Positions 1-14,649 of a stretch of 15,803 nucleotides of DNA are shown in pieces. The notes beneath the pieces are model-generated. The model did not search any database, had not been told where the DNA came from, and worked only from the letters and a program-made list of their open reading frames with translations. Position 1 is the first letter of the stretch, and the number at the start of each line of letters is the position of its first letter. The stretch comes from a virus (lineage: Duplodnaviria > Heunggongvirae > Uroviricota > Caudoviricetes). The stretch spans positions 1-15,803 of the IMG/VR virus record IMGVR_UViG_3300012075_000001; one strand, written 5' to 3'. The position numbers were made by a program, and so were the translations under genes.

Positions 1-1
1 A

Positions 2-256
2 GAGAACCGTAAACCGTTCTTATCTGGTCATCGTAAATTTTTATTCAATTTACAAGAGACGCAAAGTCCAATCGAAGTGACTTTGGTTAACGGTCAAACC
101 TATACGGGAACTATTCGAACTTCAGATGAAGAGACTATCTCGCTCGAATCTCGAAACGAAAACAGCGATAGCTACACTGTGCGAGTGATTTTTAAACATA
201 ATTTGGTAATGTTCTCACCGATTAACACGGTAACAACTGCGCCAAGACCAAGCTAA
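2..256 (+). CDS. Hfq/Sm(LSm)-fold RNA-chaperone-like protein, 5'-truncated by the window edge (absent from the ORF track)
   Basis: Manual translation of frame 2: ENRKPFLSGHRKFLFNLQETQSPIEVTLVNGQTYTGTIRTSDEETISLESRNENSDSYTVRVIFKHNLVMFSPINTVTTAPRPS*. It has an Sm1-like FL..L......V.LVNG....G.I...D...I.L and an Sm2-like IFKH, parallel to E. coli Hfq [36 protein letters not shown]...VYKHAISTVVP. Stop TAA at 254-256. Confidence 0.75.
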   Translation, partial: ENRKPFLSGHRKFLFNLQETQSPIEVTLVNGQTYTGTIRTSDEETISLESRNENSDSYTVRVIFKHNLVMFSPINTVTTAPRPS

Positions 257-265
257 GGTGTAACC

Positions 266-1663
266 ATGTCAGATCAAAGTACTGCGGCGGCTCAGCCCGC
301 CACAGCACAGCAGCCCGTCACAGATCAATTCGAGTTTGATGATGCGTTTCAATTGAAAATTGCTGCAATGTCATTGCGTGATAGTGAGTTTTTAAGACGC
401 TCAGCTCTAATGCTGAAGCCTGAATTTTTCGTTAATGAAGGTTTGGGCCAATTAGTAGCGATAGCATTAAATCACTTTCAGAAATACAACTGCGCTCCTG
501 ACAATGCCTCTTTGATCGCTCAGCTGAAAGACAGAATTGCCAATCGTTCTATTCGTAAAGAATTAGTCCCTATGGTTGTTCAAGCTGCTAAAGATGTTCA
601 ATTAGCAGATTTGTCCAACCGTCAATTTGTAGAAGAGAAGCTTGTCGACTTTTCTCGAACCTTTGCAATGAAAACAGCAATTTTAAAATCTGTTGATTTG
701 CTGAATAAGGGCAAGGTTGAAGCCATTCACTCTGTGATTGAAGAGGCCCTTGCGGTCGGCATCAATGAAGACGGCGCGGGTTATGACTTCTTTGCTACAG
801 ACCGCATTCAACAACGTACTGTTGAGCGTGTAGAGAAGGTTAGTGGCGTACTTCCTCCACAAGGTATATCAACGGGCGATGCTCGTTTGGATGGTCTTTT
901 GTATCATCGAGGGTGGGGACGTAAAGAGCTTTATGCGTTTTTAGGTGGGCCAAAGTCAGGTAAGACAACCGCCTTGATTCATTTTGGTCGCATCGCTTCG
1001 TGGTTAGGTTTTAACGTTCTTTACGCAACGTTAGAAGTAGGCGCAAAAATCATTGCAGACCGTTTTGACGCATCGCTTACAGATACCATGATGAAAGAGC
1101 TAGGCGTAAAGGCAACTGACGTTGCGCAGCAAATTCAAAAAATTGCACAAGAAGCGGGTCAATTGCGTATTCACGAATATGCATCCGGGACACTGACGGG
1201 CAATCAATTACGAAATCTCATCCAGTCTTATAAGCGCTCAGCTCATAACCCTGACGGGACGGTCAGACCGCCAATTACGTTTGATTTAATCATCGTCGAT
1301 TACGCAGACATTATGGCGCCTAACTACCGGACAAATGACACGATTGAAAACTCAAAGCAAATTTGGGTGGATCTTCGTGCAATTGCTTTTGAGGAAAATG
1401 CCGCAGTTCTTACCGCCACACAATCAAACCGTGATGGTAGTAAGCAAACAGTAGCTAAAGCCGAACACGTCGCTGACGACTTTAACAAAGTGCGTATCGT
1501 GGATTTGCTGATCTCAATTAACAAAACCGAAGAAGAGCGACAAAGCGGTGAAGCTCGCTTGTATTTTGCTGCATCCCGTAACCAAGAATCGGGTTTTACC
1601 ATCGTTGTTAAACAAGATCTGGCTCGAATGAAATTCATCGAGAGAGTTCTAAGGGTTGATTAA
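266..1663 (+). CDS. dnaB: DnaB-family (SF4) replicative DNA helicase
   Basis: Walker A GGPKSGKT, H1a-like YATLE, Walker B IIVDYAD, H3 TATQSNR, C-terminal SRN arginine-finger-like motif. AAGGTG RBS overlaps the upstream stop codon. Confidence 0.93.
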   Translation: MSDQSTAAAQPATAQQPVTDQFEFDDAFQLKIAAMSLRDSEFLRRSALMLKPEFFVNEGLGQLVAIALNHFQKYNCAPDNASLIAQLKDRIANRSIRKELVPMVVQAAKDVQLADLSNRQFVEEKLVDFSRTFAMKTAILKSVDLLNKGKVEAIHSVIEEALAVGINEDGAGYDFFATDRIQQRTVERVEKVSGVLPPQGISTGDARLDGLLYHRGWGRKELYAFLGGPKSGKTTALIHFGRIASWLGFNVLYATLEVGAKIIADRFDASLTDTMMKELGVKATDVAQQIQKIAQEAGQLRIHEYASGTLTGNQLRNLIQSYKRSAHNPDGTVRPPITFDLIIVDYADIMAPNYRTNDTIENSKQIWVDLRAIAFEENAAVLTATQSNRDGSKQTVAKAEHVADDFNKVRIVDLLISINKTEEERQSGEARLYFAASRNQESGFTIVVKQDLARMKFIERVLRVD

Positions 1664-1808: not shown

Positions 1809-1851
1809 ATTCAATAAAATTTATCTCGTGCAATTTCTAAGGGTGAAAACA

Positions 1852-2964
1852 ATGAGCCAGCCGTCAAAAGAAGATTTTGGCGAAATCCTCGACCACATTG
1901 ATATTGAGTATTGGTTGAATCGTGAAGGCATTGAGTACAAGGTAACTCGCGGTCGTAACGGTGTGCAGCTGAACTTGAAAGAATGTCCTGTTTGCGGCAA
2001 CGCGAGTTGGAAGGTCTACATTGGGGCCGTGACTGGTTTGGGCAACTGCTTTCATGGTGACTGTGAAGCTAAATTTTCTAAATGGTCATTCATTAAAGCT
2101 GAGCTAGGCAATCTTTCTAATAAGGAAGTTGCTGAACACGTAAAAGCGGTGGCTAATGAGCAAGGCTGGCAGCCAAAGCGAAAACCAACAGATGTGCAGC
2201 GTCCAAAATTGGGCGACTTACATTTTCCTCAATCGCATGAACTTCCCATTCGAGGAAGAGATGGAAAGTTGCATAACCTGAAGTATTTAGCTGATCGAGG
2301 CATCAGTATTGAAACAGTTAAGGCTTTTGGTTTGCGGTTCTGTCAGCAAGGTTCTTTTTCTTATATCGATACCTTTGGACAAAAGAAGCGCCAAAGCTTT
2401 GATAACAGAATCATTATTCCAGTAAGAAATTTAAACGGAAAGTTGGTTTCATATCAGGGTCGAGACATAACAGGCTTAGCGGACAAGAAATACCTTTTCC
2501 CTTCAGGTTATGCGTCTACAGCGGCATTTCTTTACAACGGAAATAACGCCTATGGGTGCGTAGACATTGCTATGGGTGAAGGTGCATTTGACGTCATGGC
2601 TATATATCAAGCCTTTGCTGAAGACGACGCGCTTTGCAATGTCGGTGTAGTTGGCTCGTTCGGTAAACACGTTTCATACAACGGTGAAGAGACTCAATTT
2701 GCAGAACTGTTAAAGCTCAAAGAAGCTGGCATGCAACGTTTGACATTCATGTGGGATGGAGAGCGACAAGCAATACAAGACGCAATCGAAGCGGCTCTAA
2801 TGGTTCGTAAATGCGGAATCATCGTTCGAATAGCAATCCTCCCTCCTGGTAAAGACCCTAACGAAATTCCACCCGAAATGGTGCGCTCACTTTATAGATC
2901 GGCAATTGTCGTAAATGAAATGACCGCAGTAACTCTCAAACTCCAATATGGTGTCAAAAAATGA
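1852..2964 (+). CDS. dnaG: DnaG-type DNA primase (zinc finger, RNAP-like domain, Toprim)
   Basis: CPVC...CFHGDC zinc-binding motif; RIIIPVRNLNGKLVSYQGR and KYL; Toprim EGAFD, WDGE and LPPGKDPNE. Start moved from the track's GTG 1828 to ATG 1852, which has an AAGGGTG RBS. Confidence 0.92.
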   Translation: MSQPSKEDFGEILDHIDIEYWLNREGIEYKVTRGRNGVQLNLKECPVCGNASWKVYIGAVTGLGNCFHGDCEAKFSKWSFIKAELGNLSNKEVAEHVKAVANEQGWQPKRKPTDVQRPKLGDLHFPQSHELPIRGRDGKLHNLKYLADRGISIETVKAFGLRFCQQGSFSYIDTFGQKKRQSFDNRIIIPVRNLNGKLVSYQGRDITGLADKKYLFPSGYASTAAFLYNGNNAYGCVDIAMGEGAFDVMAIYQAFAEDDALCNVGVVGSFGKHVSYNGEETQFAELLKLKEAGMQRLTFMWDGERQAIQDAIEAALMVRKCGIIVRIAILPPGKDPNEIPPEMVRSLYRSAIVVNEMTAVTLKLQYGVKK

Positions 2965-3317
2965 TGAATAAATTTTTAAATCTTTTTGCAAGAAAGACTT
3001 CAGATATTTCTGTTAATGGCAATGTCATTCGAGGACGCAGCGTAGTTATCAATGATAACGGCGTTTTTGTTGACGGAAAGCAATTTCAAGGTCTTTCGCC
3101 AAATATTGAAGTGGTTGTGAATGGCGATTGCGATAAGGTTTCTTCTGCAAGCGGCGACGTTACAGTTGAGGGAAATGTTGGCGAATTAAGCACAGCTTCG
3201 GGCGATGTGGCATGCGGAGATGTTACTGGTGATATCAGCACTGCATCAGGCGATGTTAAAGGGCGAGTTATTAAGGGCAATGTAAAAACTCTGTCTGGCG
3301 ACATCAGAACAAAGTAG
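2961..3317 (+). CDS. Small beta-solenoid repeat protein (DUF4097/putative-adhesin-like SGD repeats)
   Basis: Four tandem repeats SSASGDVTV / STASGDVAC / STASGDVKG / KTLSGDIRT in a Val/Gly/Asn-rich sequence. ATGA overlap with the primase stop. Confidence 0.7.
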   Translation: MMNKFLNLFARKTSDISVNGNVIRGRSVVINDNGVFVDGKQFQGLSPNIEVVVNGDCDKVSSASGDVTVEGNVGELSTASGDVACGDVTGDISTASGDVKGRVIKGNVKTLSGDIRTK

Positions 3318-3326
3318 GATCAAACA

Positions 3327-3842
3327 ATGACTATTAATATTGAAGTGGTTGAATACCTTGTTTCTGACTCAAGCTCTGGCGGCAAAGATTACATGCTTGT
3401 TCATGCGTATAACGTTCAAACTGGCGCGGGTTGGGTTAAGGCTTGCTATGGAAAGTTGGAAGGATCGTTTCAGATCGCGACTCATGTTTTTAGAAACGGC
3501 CAAGAAGCGAGTGACCATCTTTTAAAAAAAATCAAAGAGAAAAAACTCAAGGGATATAAACCAAAAAATCCCGAGAGCCATAAATTGTCTAGTTCAATAT
3601 TTGGAAAAATCAGAGATTTTAGCGTTGGCGAAATAGTATATAGAAAAGAACGTTTCCTTGAAATTAATGCCAATCAAACGACAAAGGCGACATTGAGCCA
3701 GTTTCTAAGTGGGCCAGAGCTTGATTTGTTATTTGAAATTATGGATGACGAGAACACGCCTGTATTCGCCAAAGCCTCCGCAGACTCAGAAGCAAAACGT
3801 ATCCAAGAAAGCTACGGCTCAAGATGGGGAGCTTGGTCATGA
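3327..3842 (+). CDS. WGR-domain-like protein
   Basis: N-terminal pattern KDY.......V...YGK.......F.....A.......K.KEK..KGY resembles WGR domains, with YGK in place of WGR. Ends in RWGAWS. AGGA RBS upstream. Confidence 0.6.
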   Translation: MTINIEVVEYLVSDSSSGGKDYMLVHAYNVQTGAGWVKACYGKLEGSFQIATHVFRNGQEASDHLLKKIKEKKLKGYKPKNPESHKLSSSIFGKIRDFSVGEIVYRKERFLEINANQTTKATLSQFLSGPELDLLFEIMDDENTPVFAKASADSEAKRIQESYGSRWGAWS

Positions 3843-4261
3843 TCAAGCTTAAAACTGGCAGTTCATACATGAGCCATAATTTTTCCACAACAAGATCTAT
3901 TCACCTTGTTAGCGTAGATGATGACCCTCAAAAATGTGTGGTTTTTGATTTTATTACCGTGCAGAAAGCAAATGGCAAACTCAAGATTACAGACAATAGT
4001 TTTGTATGTCGCATTGACGAGGGGATAAATCACCTTGCGCTTGAGGTGGAAAAATTAGGAAAGGACGAAAAATTTGCAGGCTCTAAACCAGTTCAGTTCG
4101 GACTATCCGCATTCAAAAACAACTCAATGATTTCAACTGAGGACATTGTTCAACGGATTGGTAAGTTTTTGACTGAAGCAAAGATAAGAAACTTGGTGTC
4201 AAAAGCGAGTGCCAGATATGAAACGGAAGGCAAGAAGTTAGTTTGGGGGAGTTGGAGTTAA
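3839..4261 (+). CDS. Hypothetical protein with C-terminal WGSWS motif
   Basis: ATG 3839 makes an ATGA overlap with the previous stop and has GGAG upstream, so it is preferred over the track's start at 3824. Ends in VWGSWS. Confidence 0.7.
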   Translation: MIKLKTGSSYMSHNFSTTRSIHLVSVDDDPQKCVVFDFITVQKANGKLKITDNSFVCRIDEGINHLALEVEKLGKDEKFAGSKPVQFGLSAFKNNSMISTEDIVQRIGKFLTEAKIRNLVSKASARYETEGKKLVWGSWS

Positions 4262-4347: not shown

Positions 4348-4943
4348 AAAATCGTATAGAAACAGTGCCTTTTGTGGATACAGCGATTTATCCCATTGAG
4401 GCTTCAGCGCAGGGCGGGAACGCTTATTATCTTGAGCATTGCGGCGCTTCAGGGTATCGACCAGCTTATGCCTCGTGTTTAAACCGCATACGCGAGATAG
4501 AAGAAGGTAAATCACTTCCATCTGTAGAGTATGGTTGCTCTGCTGCGATATGCAATAACGTTTGTCAGGCATTGACCATGCATCAAGAAGAGAAGCGTAA
4601 AGGTGTGGCGATTTACTACATCAACCGAGTTAAGATGCGCCAAAATACACGTTACAACGCAGCTCAGTACGGTATTAAAATTTCTGAAATTGCGATTAAA
4701 AACGATATCAAAAAGCCGTCTGTAAAACCCGTTGAACCATCTAATCCGTTTGAAGTTGGCAGCATAGCTGATGCAATCAACAGCCGAGTTGCAAAGGAAT
4801 ATCAAGAGGAAAATAAACAATCCGCTTTAAATTCCAGCGATAAACCTTTATCATCACAAACAGATCAGTCAGTACTGACTGTTAGTAAAGGGATGTCATT
4901 AATAGATATTGCAAAAGCAAAGCGACAACTATCAAACGCTTAA
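4344..4943 (+). CDS. Hypothetical protein, Cys-containing N-terminal domain and low-complexity C-terminal tail
   Basis: 199-aa ORF co-directional with its neighbours. Five Cys in HCG...SCL...GCSAAICNNVC. Confidence 0.75.
   Translation: MKNRIETVPFVDTAIYPIEASAQGGNAYYLEHCGASGYRPAYASCLNRIREIEEGKSLPSVEYGCSAAICNNVCQALTMHQEEKRKGVAIYYINRVKMRQNTRYNAAQYGIKISEIAIKNDIKKPSVKPVEPSNPFEVGSIADAINSRVAKEYQEENKQSALNSSDKPLSSQTDQSVLTVSKGMSLIDIAKAKRQLSNA
4863..4884. promoter_or_regulatory. Operator palindrome copy 1 (inside the coding sequence)
   Basis: GATCAGTCAG-TA-CTGACTGTTA, containing the perfect 16-bp palindrome CAGTCAGTACTGACTG (4866-4881). Lies 79 bp upstream of ORF 4964. Confidence 0.6.
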
Positions 4944-12549: not shown

Positions 12550-12571
12550 AATCAGTCAGTACTGATTGAAT
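12550..12571. promoter_or_regulatory. Operator palindrome copy 5
   Basis: AATCAGTCAG-TA-CTGATTGAAT, 16 bp before the cobT-like ATG. Shares an exact 19-mer (12547-12565) with copy 6 (14625-14643). Confidence 0.75.
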
Positions 12572-14627: not shown

Positions 14628-14649
14628 AATCAGTCAGTACTGACTATCT
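14628..14649. promoter_or_regulatory. Operator palindrome copy 6
   Basis: AATCAGTCAG-TA-CTGACTATCT in the cobT-cobS intergenic region, 81 bp upstream of the ATPase start. Confidence 0.75.

Follow-up and report, generated by a model that had tools for sequence, protein, structure and literature searches.

The stretch of DNA analyzed here, referred to below as the window, comprises 15,803 nucleotides (nt) and is the first 15.8 kb of the IMG/VR virus record IMGVR_UViG_3300012075_000001 (Caudoviricetes). It opens inside a gene whose product, here called P0001, resembles the RNA chaperone Hfq, and this gene runs directly into that of a DnaB-like replicative helicase, with a DnaG-type primase gene following (Table 1). 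An earlier, sequence-only reading of the same stretch had described frame 2 at this position as an open reading frame (ORF) with Sm1-like and Sm2-like motifs. Indeed, frame 2 is open from base 2 of the window to a TAA, and its translation yields 84 residues that include the Sm1-like stretch, ESRNENSDSY and IFKH, as had been quoted.

The ORF is incomplete at its 5' end in the window because the record was cut at a circular junction inside the gene. The virus record (G000 in the coordinates given below) has 109,742 bp, and its final 123 bases repeat its first 123 (window 1-123 corresponds to G000:109620-109742). This terminal repeat is the assembly overlap of a circular molecule and, as it cuts through P0001, each flanking window shows only half of the gene. 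Extension in the 5' direction, which the sequence-only reading had suggested for finding the start codon, led to an ATG (MIQGW...) at G000:109345 (L002:1226), outside the window, and to a full product of 176 amino acids (aa). The 176-aa sequence is present letter for letter in a large protein collection, where relatives likewise begin with MIQGW. The possibility that the fragment was the tail of a larger, unrelated protein was borne out only as far as size is concerned: the fragment does form the end of a longer, 176-aa protein, yet the 100 added residues consist of a helix and a disordered linker and contain no unrelated domain.

When compared with a 77%-identical orthologue, the whole ORF shows purifying selection, with a ratio of nonsynonymous to synonymous substitution rates (dN/dS) of 0.12. 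By part, the N-terminal helix has a value of 0.045, the linker 0.10 and the Sm core 0.13, as compared with 0.036 for the helicase in the same type of comparison, and these should be considered approximate, with dS being near saturation in the linker. P0001 is a real, selected gene.

Table 1 Features of the Hfq-like gene and its surroundings. Positions are those of the window unless another record is named.
Feature	Position	Strand	Evidence or remarks
3' part of the Hfq-like gene P0001 (codons 93-176 and stop)	1..256	+	Frame 2 open to TAA; dN/dS 0.12 for the whole gene
Family-specific 'GH' motif, G101-H102; H102 aligns with Hfq Q8	26..31	+	G in 64/64, H in 62/64 members
Sm/Hfq core, residues G101-P165	26..220	+	AlphaFold2, Foldseek, Pfam Hfq, family profile
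Elongated β3-β4 loop, ESRNENSDSY	146..175	+	Profile alignments; length varies across the family
Sm2 motif, F156-K157-H158 (Hfq Y55-K56-H57), proximal-pore site	191..199	+	F in 59/64, K in 64/64, H in 56/64 members
Junction of the Hfq-like gene and helicase gene	254..268	+	TAA 254-256 overlaps Shine-Dalgarno AAGGTG 255-260, 5 nt before helicase ATG 266-268
DnaB-like replicative helicase, 465 aa	266..1663	+	Pfam DnaB_C; >900 homologues
DnaG-type primase, 378 aa, third cistron	1828..2964	+	Pfam DNAG_N, Toprim_2; kept downstream in relatives
Next AGTCAGTACTGACT box, probable end of the transcription unit	4867..4880	.	
up246, 246 aa, just upstream of P0001, outside the window	L002:418-1158 (G000:108537-109277)		phrog_2500, unknown function

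Fold and RNA-binding positions of the Hfq-like protein

The Pfam Hfq family PF17209 matches the 84-aa fragment with 31.8 bits (E 1.1e-7), far beyond chance, and the full-length protein with 29.3 bits, both above the gathering score of 27. This score should be read as marginal within the family, as the pABTJ2-type orthologue described below (21.1 bits) and the corresponding protein of Pseudomonas phage Nickie, gp117 (23.4 bits), both fall under the cut-off. The AlphaFold2 model, built from 24 family members, presents the Sm topology, with helix α1 at residues 102-112 and strands at 115-120, 125-133, 137-143, 150-156 and 160-165, all predicted with high confidence (predicted local distance difference test, pLDDT, 91-97). 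The best 50 Foldseek matches of the core in the PDB are all bacterial Hfq proteins, with TM-scores normalized by target of up to 0.90 and a root mean square deviation of 0.8-2 Å. A profile of the family likewise matches Hfq of Bacillus subtilis (E 4.2e-9) and of Thermotoga maritima (E 4.3e-8), and P0001 falls among the Hfq and Hfq_1 clusters in a language-model atlas. Judged by sequence and model, P0001 is thus a divergent, N-terminally extended Hfq/Sm-fold protein, in agreement with the identity that had been proposed from the letters alone. The elongated loop between the two Sm motifs was recovered as well: in the profile alignment, the β3-β4 loop carries a 6-residue insertion relative to the Hfq proteins of B. 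subtilis, T. maritima, Listeria and Staphylococcus aureus.

The N-terminal part of P0001 is modelled as a helix at about residues 7-26 (pLDDT ~86), followed by a low-confidence, disordered linker of about 75 residues, which in most relatives ends in a basic arm. There is no cysteine in the P0001 sequence. By inspection, the N-terminal helix contains the motif [D/E]xxRxxQxxx[G/A]R in 25 of 42 unique proteins, while short forms of 88-111 aa are without it. We also looked for a Rosetta-stone clue in long matches with several Sm domains (P0004, P0018, P0022 and P0023); these contain HEAT repeats or unrelated domains and no replication domain. Two of these metagenomic proteins, P0018 (703 aa) and P0023 (727 aa), present an unusual architecture of tandem Sm/Hfq-like repeats followed by HEAT repeats; both are weak matches with no relation to the replication module.

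In textbooks, Hfq is regarded as the matchmaker of small RNAs (sRNAs) and mRNAs. To describe the family at the positions that serve this function, 64 non-redundant members were mapped to the numbering of Escherichia coli Hfq through the profile alignment. The fold-core residues G34 and D40 are invariant. At the proximal site, K56 is found in all 64 members, H57 in 56 and F or Y at position 55 in 62, while Q8 is replaced by His, within the Gly-His motif, in 62. Position 42 of the same site (F in E. coli) is Y, F or W in 50 of the 64 members, and Glu in P0001 and its Acinetobacter relatives. At the rim, R16, R17 and R19 correspond to Q110, E111 and Q113 in P0001 and to E/Q, A/T and G across the family, such that the basic patch is absent. 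The distal residues Y25, I30 and K31 correspond to T119, Q124 and T125, and are variable and non-aromatic across the family (E/T, E/D and V/T), such that the site for A-rich RNA is absent as well. The net charge of the Sm core has a median of -1 (-2 in P0001), while that of the N-terminal part has a median of +4, often in a K/R/P-rich arm right before Gly-His. By these alignments, only the proximal of the three RNA-binding surfaces of Hfq survives, at least in part, and the rim and distal surfaces are lost, which argues against sRNA-mRNA matchmaking.

The sequence-only reading had pointed out that several RNA-contacting positions differ from canonical Hfq, and the survey confirms this for the rim, the distal site, Q8 and F42. 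One of its examples, FKH in place of YKH, should be dropped, as Listeria Hfq also has FKH and this variant is not unusual. P0001 scores far under the cut-offs of the NCBI equivalog models for Hfq (24.6 vs 61.7 bits for TIGR02383 and 18.8 vs 95 bits for NF001602), and is 21-27% identical to gamma-proteobacterial Hfq and 21-31% identical to bacterial Hfq overall. An exhaustive search of 1.84 billion representatives returned 26 relatives at E<=0.001, none of which is a canonical Hfq. On these comparisons, P0001 is not a canonical Hfq, and the name 'RNA chaperone Hfq' is misleading.

Position of the gene in the helicase-primase operon

The stop codon of the Hfq-like gene overlaps the ribosome-binding site of the helicase, and the gene stands directly upstream of the helicase gene, both as first noticed in the sequence (Table 1). 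To see how far this arrangement extends, we considered 80 viral IMG/VR loci that had been picked by helicase alignment alone (50-92% identity), 79 of which had enough upstream DNA. In all 79, the ORF that ends where the helicase begins is Hfq-like, with Sm-profile E values of 1e-18 to 3e-32. The gene further upstream, up246, precedes the Hfq-like ORF in 40 of 42 non-redundant loci. The trio of up246, Hfq-like gene and helicase was also kept in each of eight diverse metagenomic loci, where members are about 30% identical and the backbones are otherwise different; overall, the Hfq-like gene is fixed in this one slot across relatives down to ~25% identity. Nine loci have between -8 and +12 nt from the Hfq-like stop codon to the helicase start, and the two pABTJ2-type loci have 36 nt; in Nickie, gp117 overlaps the helicase gene by 8 nt. 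No terminator was found between the Hfq-like gene and the helicase. The Hfq-like gene is the first cistron of a helicase-primase operon, and this arrangement is common to a large clade of phages and phage-plasmids of ~105-112 kb.

The spacer of a promoter-like element (TTTAAA-18-TATACT) contains a perfect 14-bp palindrome, AGTCAGTACTGACT, at G000:109296-109309, which ends about 35 nt upstream of the P0001 start codon. The genome contains 9 perfect copies and 12 copies with one mismatch, as compared with 0.04 expected per window, and these are typically fused to TATACT. In addition to the box listed in Table 1, boxes of this type are found in the window at, among other places, 12554-12567 and 14632-14645. 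In five divergent relatives, related boxes (AGTCA-N4-TGACT with TATACT) are found in front of the Hfq-like gene; as these relatives include distant and even GC-rich ones, the box is a putative promoter/operator type shared by the whole clade. Given the lack of a terminator and the position of the next box at 4867, the predicted transcription unit comprises the genes for the Hfq-like protein, helicase and primase plus four small ones.

The host element, its relatives and neighbouring genes

Full-length orthologues of P0001, ~77% identical (range 76-81%), are present on 27 Acinetobacter plasmids, where RefSeq labels them 'RNA chaperone Hfq' (WP_000614153.1, P0003). A 143-aa form, ~38% identical, is found on 124 further Acinetobacter plasmids of the pABTJ2 type (~111 kb) under the label 'hypothetical protein' (WP_000005905.1), for a total of 151 Acinetobacter plasmids of about 105-113 kb (full range 94-134 kb) with the orthologous region. 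Both plasmid forms share the gene order RepM (Rep3), up246 (~245 aa), Hfq-like gene, DnaB-like helicase and primase, and both proteins are present in PHROGs as families of unknown function (phrog_19781 and phrog_5258). The gene can thus be called unannotated, as the sequence-only reading did, for the present IMG/VR record but not for its relatives; P0001 is a new sequence variant of these Acinetobacter orthologues, whose database names are automatic, one of them overstating function.

A Rep3 initiator, ParA and a tyrosine recombinase are encoded within or beside the window. The AB group of phage-plasmids, replicons of about 110 kb that combine structural genes of a phage with replication and partition genes of a plasmid, is Acinetobacter-specific and distantly linked to phage Nickie (Pfeifer et al. 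2021, PMC7969092). The two plasmid forms are two subgroups of this group, to which the element belongs, and its phage-plasmid nature, assumed at the outset, is well borne out by the 151 plasmids, the nearby Rep3 initiator and the AB group. Its description as SSU5-like did not hold: SSU5 has no DNA match to the element, its helicase is 37.6% identical, and the Hfq-like gene is absent from the genomes of SSU5 and of Klebsiella pJN2-26. Synteny with the helicase, which the sequence-only reading had suggested surveying in SSU5-like elements, was seen at 79/79 loci chosen by helicase but not in these two. Neither Hfq nor the helicase is mentioned in the phage-plasmid census (PMC7969092) or in the pABTJ2 paper, and we found no paper on the combination of Acinetobacter, phage-plasmid and Hfq, nor on phage or viral Hfq.

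Beyond plasmids, gp117 (89 aa) of the virulent Pseudomonas phage Nickie is a member of the family (hhalign probability 95.5%, E 1.5e-8; 3.8e-10 in a whole-genome profile search). As Nickie is virulent and yet keeps the gene in the same slot, the gene is not tied to plasmid carriage. It should be noted that gp117 was recovered only by synteny and profile comparison; a tblastn search of 50,697 phage records with the N-terminal 136 aa and with the distant member P0007 gave no matches. Similarly, a locus search with P0001 alone returned close relatives only, and the wider set was obtained via the helicase alignment. In the Stenotrophomonas phage BUCTxx99, a 69-aa ORF with an Sm1-like stretch (L024:3174-3383) occupies the same slot, after an up246 homologue and overlapping the helicase start by 8 nt. 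No assignment of this ORF to the family was possible (hhalign probability 0.7%); it may be either a highly divergent member or a non-homologous ORF that took its place.

Homologues of the helicase, at 37-45% identity, are also found in SSU5, pJN2-26, Rhizobium RHEph10 and B1VFA. In these four genomes, an up246 homologue (hmmsearch E 1e-28 to 1e-36) is followed by the helicase gene after 60-118 nt, and up246 stands next to the helicase in Nickie and BUCTxx99 as well. The AlphaFold2 model of up246 shows an all-helical fold (pLDDT 90), for which no Pfam, atlas or PDB fold match was obtained, and only uncharacterised clusters in AFDB. As a candidate for an initiator or helicase-loader role, up246 is the more widely conserved of the two proteins. 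As for other replication proteins, the element encodes a T4 gp32-type single-stranded DNA-binding protein (SSB) at G000:22327-22896 (PF08804, 79.8 bits), while no canonical SSB, DnaC/IstB-type loader or family-A polymerase was detected in it. The Hfq-like protein as an SSB substitute was ruled out, as the element has this gp32-type protein.

Elsewhere in the window are genes for a WGR protein, an ATP-dependent ligase, a guanylate-kinase-like protein, ParA, the tyrosine recombinase and CobT- and CobS-like proteins. The primase gene is followed by a 118-aa ORF (2961-3317) that repeats the motif 'S(A/T)ASGDV' and is without a Pfam match; it could be a β-helix or bactofilin-like repeat protein within the replication operon. 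The two ORFs at 3327-3842 (171 aa, a weak WGR-domain match) and 3824-4261 (145 aa) overlap, and both end in W-G-(A/S)-W-S, which may point to paralogy or to a common interaction peptide at the C-terminus; a WGR protein also follows the primase in distant relatives. Among helicase homologues, P0049 (772 aa, from a related phage) is 67% identical over half of its length and contains an intein-type insertion (PF14890) in the DnaB-like helicase. In a pABTJ2-type locus (GCA_033031145.1, L022:2145-2665), the Rep3 initiator was called in two pieces, Rep3_N of 137 aa and Rep3_C of 33 aa, which suggests that this rep gene is frameshifted or disrupted.

Possible functions and known systems

The reading that we favour, tentatively, is that P0001 forms a one-faced ring for single-stranded DNA (ssDNA) or RNA and serves as an accessory of the element's replication machinery, being neither an indispensable helicase loader nor a global RNA chaperone. 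The protein would assemble into a ring as Hfq does, a step that we infer from the conserved (F/Y)KH and β4/β5 residues only. The ring would bind single-stranded nucleic acid only via the proximal pore (the His in place of Q8, with K56 and H57) and the flexible N-terminal arms. It would be made together with the helicase and primase and work with them at the element's own replication, a possible task being to hold ssDNA or RNA primers during primosome assembly. Among the three functions offered by the sequence-only reading, action at the replication machinery is the one that would best suit the gene context. A predicted complex of the helicase and the Hfq-like protein scored 0.00 (partner pLDDT 32-48) in a calculation without controls, and this result speaks neither for nor against binding.

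Several observations weigh against this reading and need to be considered. All members come from a single viral clade in which gene order is strongly conserved and, therefore, shared ancestry may account for the 79/79 loci as much as a functional link does; in addition, phage genomes in general often have tight or overlapping gene junctions. No Hfq-like gene is found anywhere in the genomes of SSU5, pJN2-26, RHEph10 and B1VFA. As their module is homologous, the helicase does not need such a partner, and the protein is not an indispensable loader. The gene is a lineage-specific insertion at the junction of up246 and the helicase, or was lost elsewhere; probably, a single lineage acquired it as an accessory to an older module of up246, helicase and primase. 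The gp32-type SSB is encoded in all five genomes compared (those four and Nickie), with or without the Hfq-like gene, which also leaves a role as mediator for gp32-coated DNA unsupported. Finally, the retained proximal site is that by which Hfq holds U-rich RNA 3' ends, which fits a role with RNA equally well, and in the window's own subgroup the aromatic residue at position 42 is Glu, so that even the proximal site is altered.

A more specific form of the replication role is one in which the Sm/Hfq hexamer would be a structural part of the primosome, docking coaxially on the hexameric DnaB-type helicase and its primase or handing single-stranded nucleic acid to them, an arrangement that would have arisen independently in archaeal plasmids; we consider this quite unlikely. 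The main rival, somewhat unlikely in our view, is that the protein is the element's own RNA regulator, with a ring that would bind transcripts of the element at their leaders or U-rich 3' ends, e.g. the leader of its own operon or non-coding RNAs of the element, and control their stability or translation, the operon position serving only for timing. The Hfq fold with its conserved proximal K56 and H57 and the aromatic residue at position 42 in 50/64 members is what such a regulator would present, E. coli Hfq autoregulates its own translation, and dispensability in the SSU5 and RHEph10 lineages suits a regulator better than a core part of the replisome. Nonetheless, with the rim and distal sites absent family-wide and a neutral to acidic Sm core, the matching of two RNAs is improbable; the Glu at position 42 in the window's subgroup also argues against this role, which, moreover, leaves the strict adjacency to the helicase at 79/79 loci unexplained.

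The other explanations can be given still less weight. An early protein with a role outside replication and RNA regulation, e.g. in anti-defence, could stand at the operon start by chance; this we regard as clearly improbable. While the gene does sit at the start of an early-type operon and is present in a lineage-specific manner, anti-defence genes are usually variable and mobile, and the Hfq-like gene is fixed in one slot under purifying selection; there is no defence-related match in Pfam, NCBIfam or PHROGs, with PADLOC not searched. It is very improbable that the protein interferes with the host's Hfq network, be it by forming poisoned hexamers with Acinetobacter Hfq, mixed hexamers being what the sequence-only reading had proposed, or by sequestering host sRNAs. 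The shared fold and the extra Hfq copies known from mobile elements, e.g. pXO1, speak for this idea; however, identity to gamma-proteobacterial Hfq is only 21-27%, the equivalog models are not matched, and the surfaces for sRNA bodies and for A-rich motifs of mRNAs are missing throughout the family. Moreover, the gene holds its fixed operon position with the helicase and is kept in virulent Nickie and in metagenomic phages that vary widely in GC content and have hosts with different Hfq proteins. The least to be expected is a second, functionally equivalent Hfq copy carried as cargo. The PGAP label on WP_000614153.1 and its relatives and a Pfam Hfq score above the gathering score would suit such a copy, but not the equivalog scores far under the cut-off, the absence of the rim arginine patch and distal site, the 100-residue N-terminal extension in place of Hfq's C-terminal tail, or the lack of any canonical Hfq among the 26 relatives; furthermore, the gene is core to the replication operon rather than variable cargo.

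These results matter in several respects. Automatic annotation is spreading the name 'RNA chaperone Hfq' onto a protein that does not fit it, in plasmids of clinical Acinetobacter baumannii, and, in a large and mostly uncultured clade of phages and phage-plasmids of ~110 kb, an Hfq-like gene is locked to that of the replicative helicase. Should the ring work with the helicase or primase, the Sm fold would have a task new to it, paralleled by convergence in archaea, and phage DNA replication would have a new accessory factor; were the hexamer a structural part of the primosome, it would represent a new DNA-replication branch of the Sm superfamily. The finding also points to a second uncharacterised partner, up246, with a confidently predicted new all-helical fold and a wider conservation that reaches SSU5. 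Both proteins are directly testable in Nickie, which is cultivable, or in those laboratory Acinetobacter strains that have AB-group plasmids.

Among known systems, phage helicase loaders are encoded just 5' of the helicase, as in SPP1, where G39P precedes G40P, and as for lambda P. The SPP1 order G38P-G39P-G40P resembles the present one in that a small gene stands directly 5' of a DnaB-type helicase gene, with a gene for ~250 aa before it. P0001 has no sequence or fold similarity to any known loader, and the homologous helicases of SSU5 and RHEph10 are without such a gene. Bacterial Hfq (PF17209; structures from E. coli, Pseudomonas aeruginosa, B. subtilis and T. maritima) shares with P0001 helix α1 and the five strands, the invariant G34 and D40 and the (F/Y)-K-H of Sm2, at TM-scores by target of 0.8-0.9. 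P0001 differs in having no basic rim and none of the distal aromatic, Ile and Lys residues, His for Q8 and Glu for F42, a loop longer by 6 residues, a neutral to acidic core, a 100-residue N-terminal extension and a place in a phage replication operon.

Cyanobacterial Hfq (Ssr3341, PDB 3HFO, NF047718) is similar in being an Hfq fold that departs from the canonical residues of the RNA sites. Indeed, 3HFO is the second-best PDB sequence match of P0001 (E 0.093) and NF047718 matches with E 0.007, both of these being below the significance cut-off. In Synechocystis, this Hfq does its work docked on PilB1, a secretion ATPase (PMC4390875). As the cyanobacterial protein is chromosomal, related to pili and without an N-terminal extension, its likeness to P0001 should be taken as a functional analogy only.

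A further parallel comes from the Thermococcus and Methanocaldococcus plasmids pP12-1, pCIR10, pIRI48 and pMETVU01, which encode proteins that start with a Zn finger and have an Hfq-like domain at the C-terminus; the genes lie immediately beside helicase genes in one transcription unit, and the authors speculated on a role in replication (Krupovic et al. 2013, PMC3543421). Like P0001, these are proteins of mobile elements, with an N-terminal extension, an Hfq-like domain in the C-terminal part, and a gene beside that of a helicase. They differ in that the archaeal gene is downstream of the helicase and contributes a C2H2 Zn finger, whereas that of P0001 is upstream and contributes a Cys-free helix and a disordered linker. 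The helicase family of the archaeal plasmids is also, we assume, a different one from that of the present element. The archaeal and Synechocystis cases suggest that, beyond the sRNA paradigm, rings of the Hfq fold can work alongside replication modules or motor ATPases.

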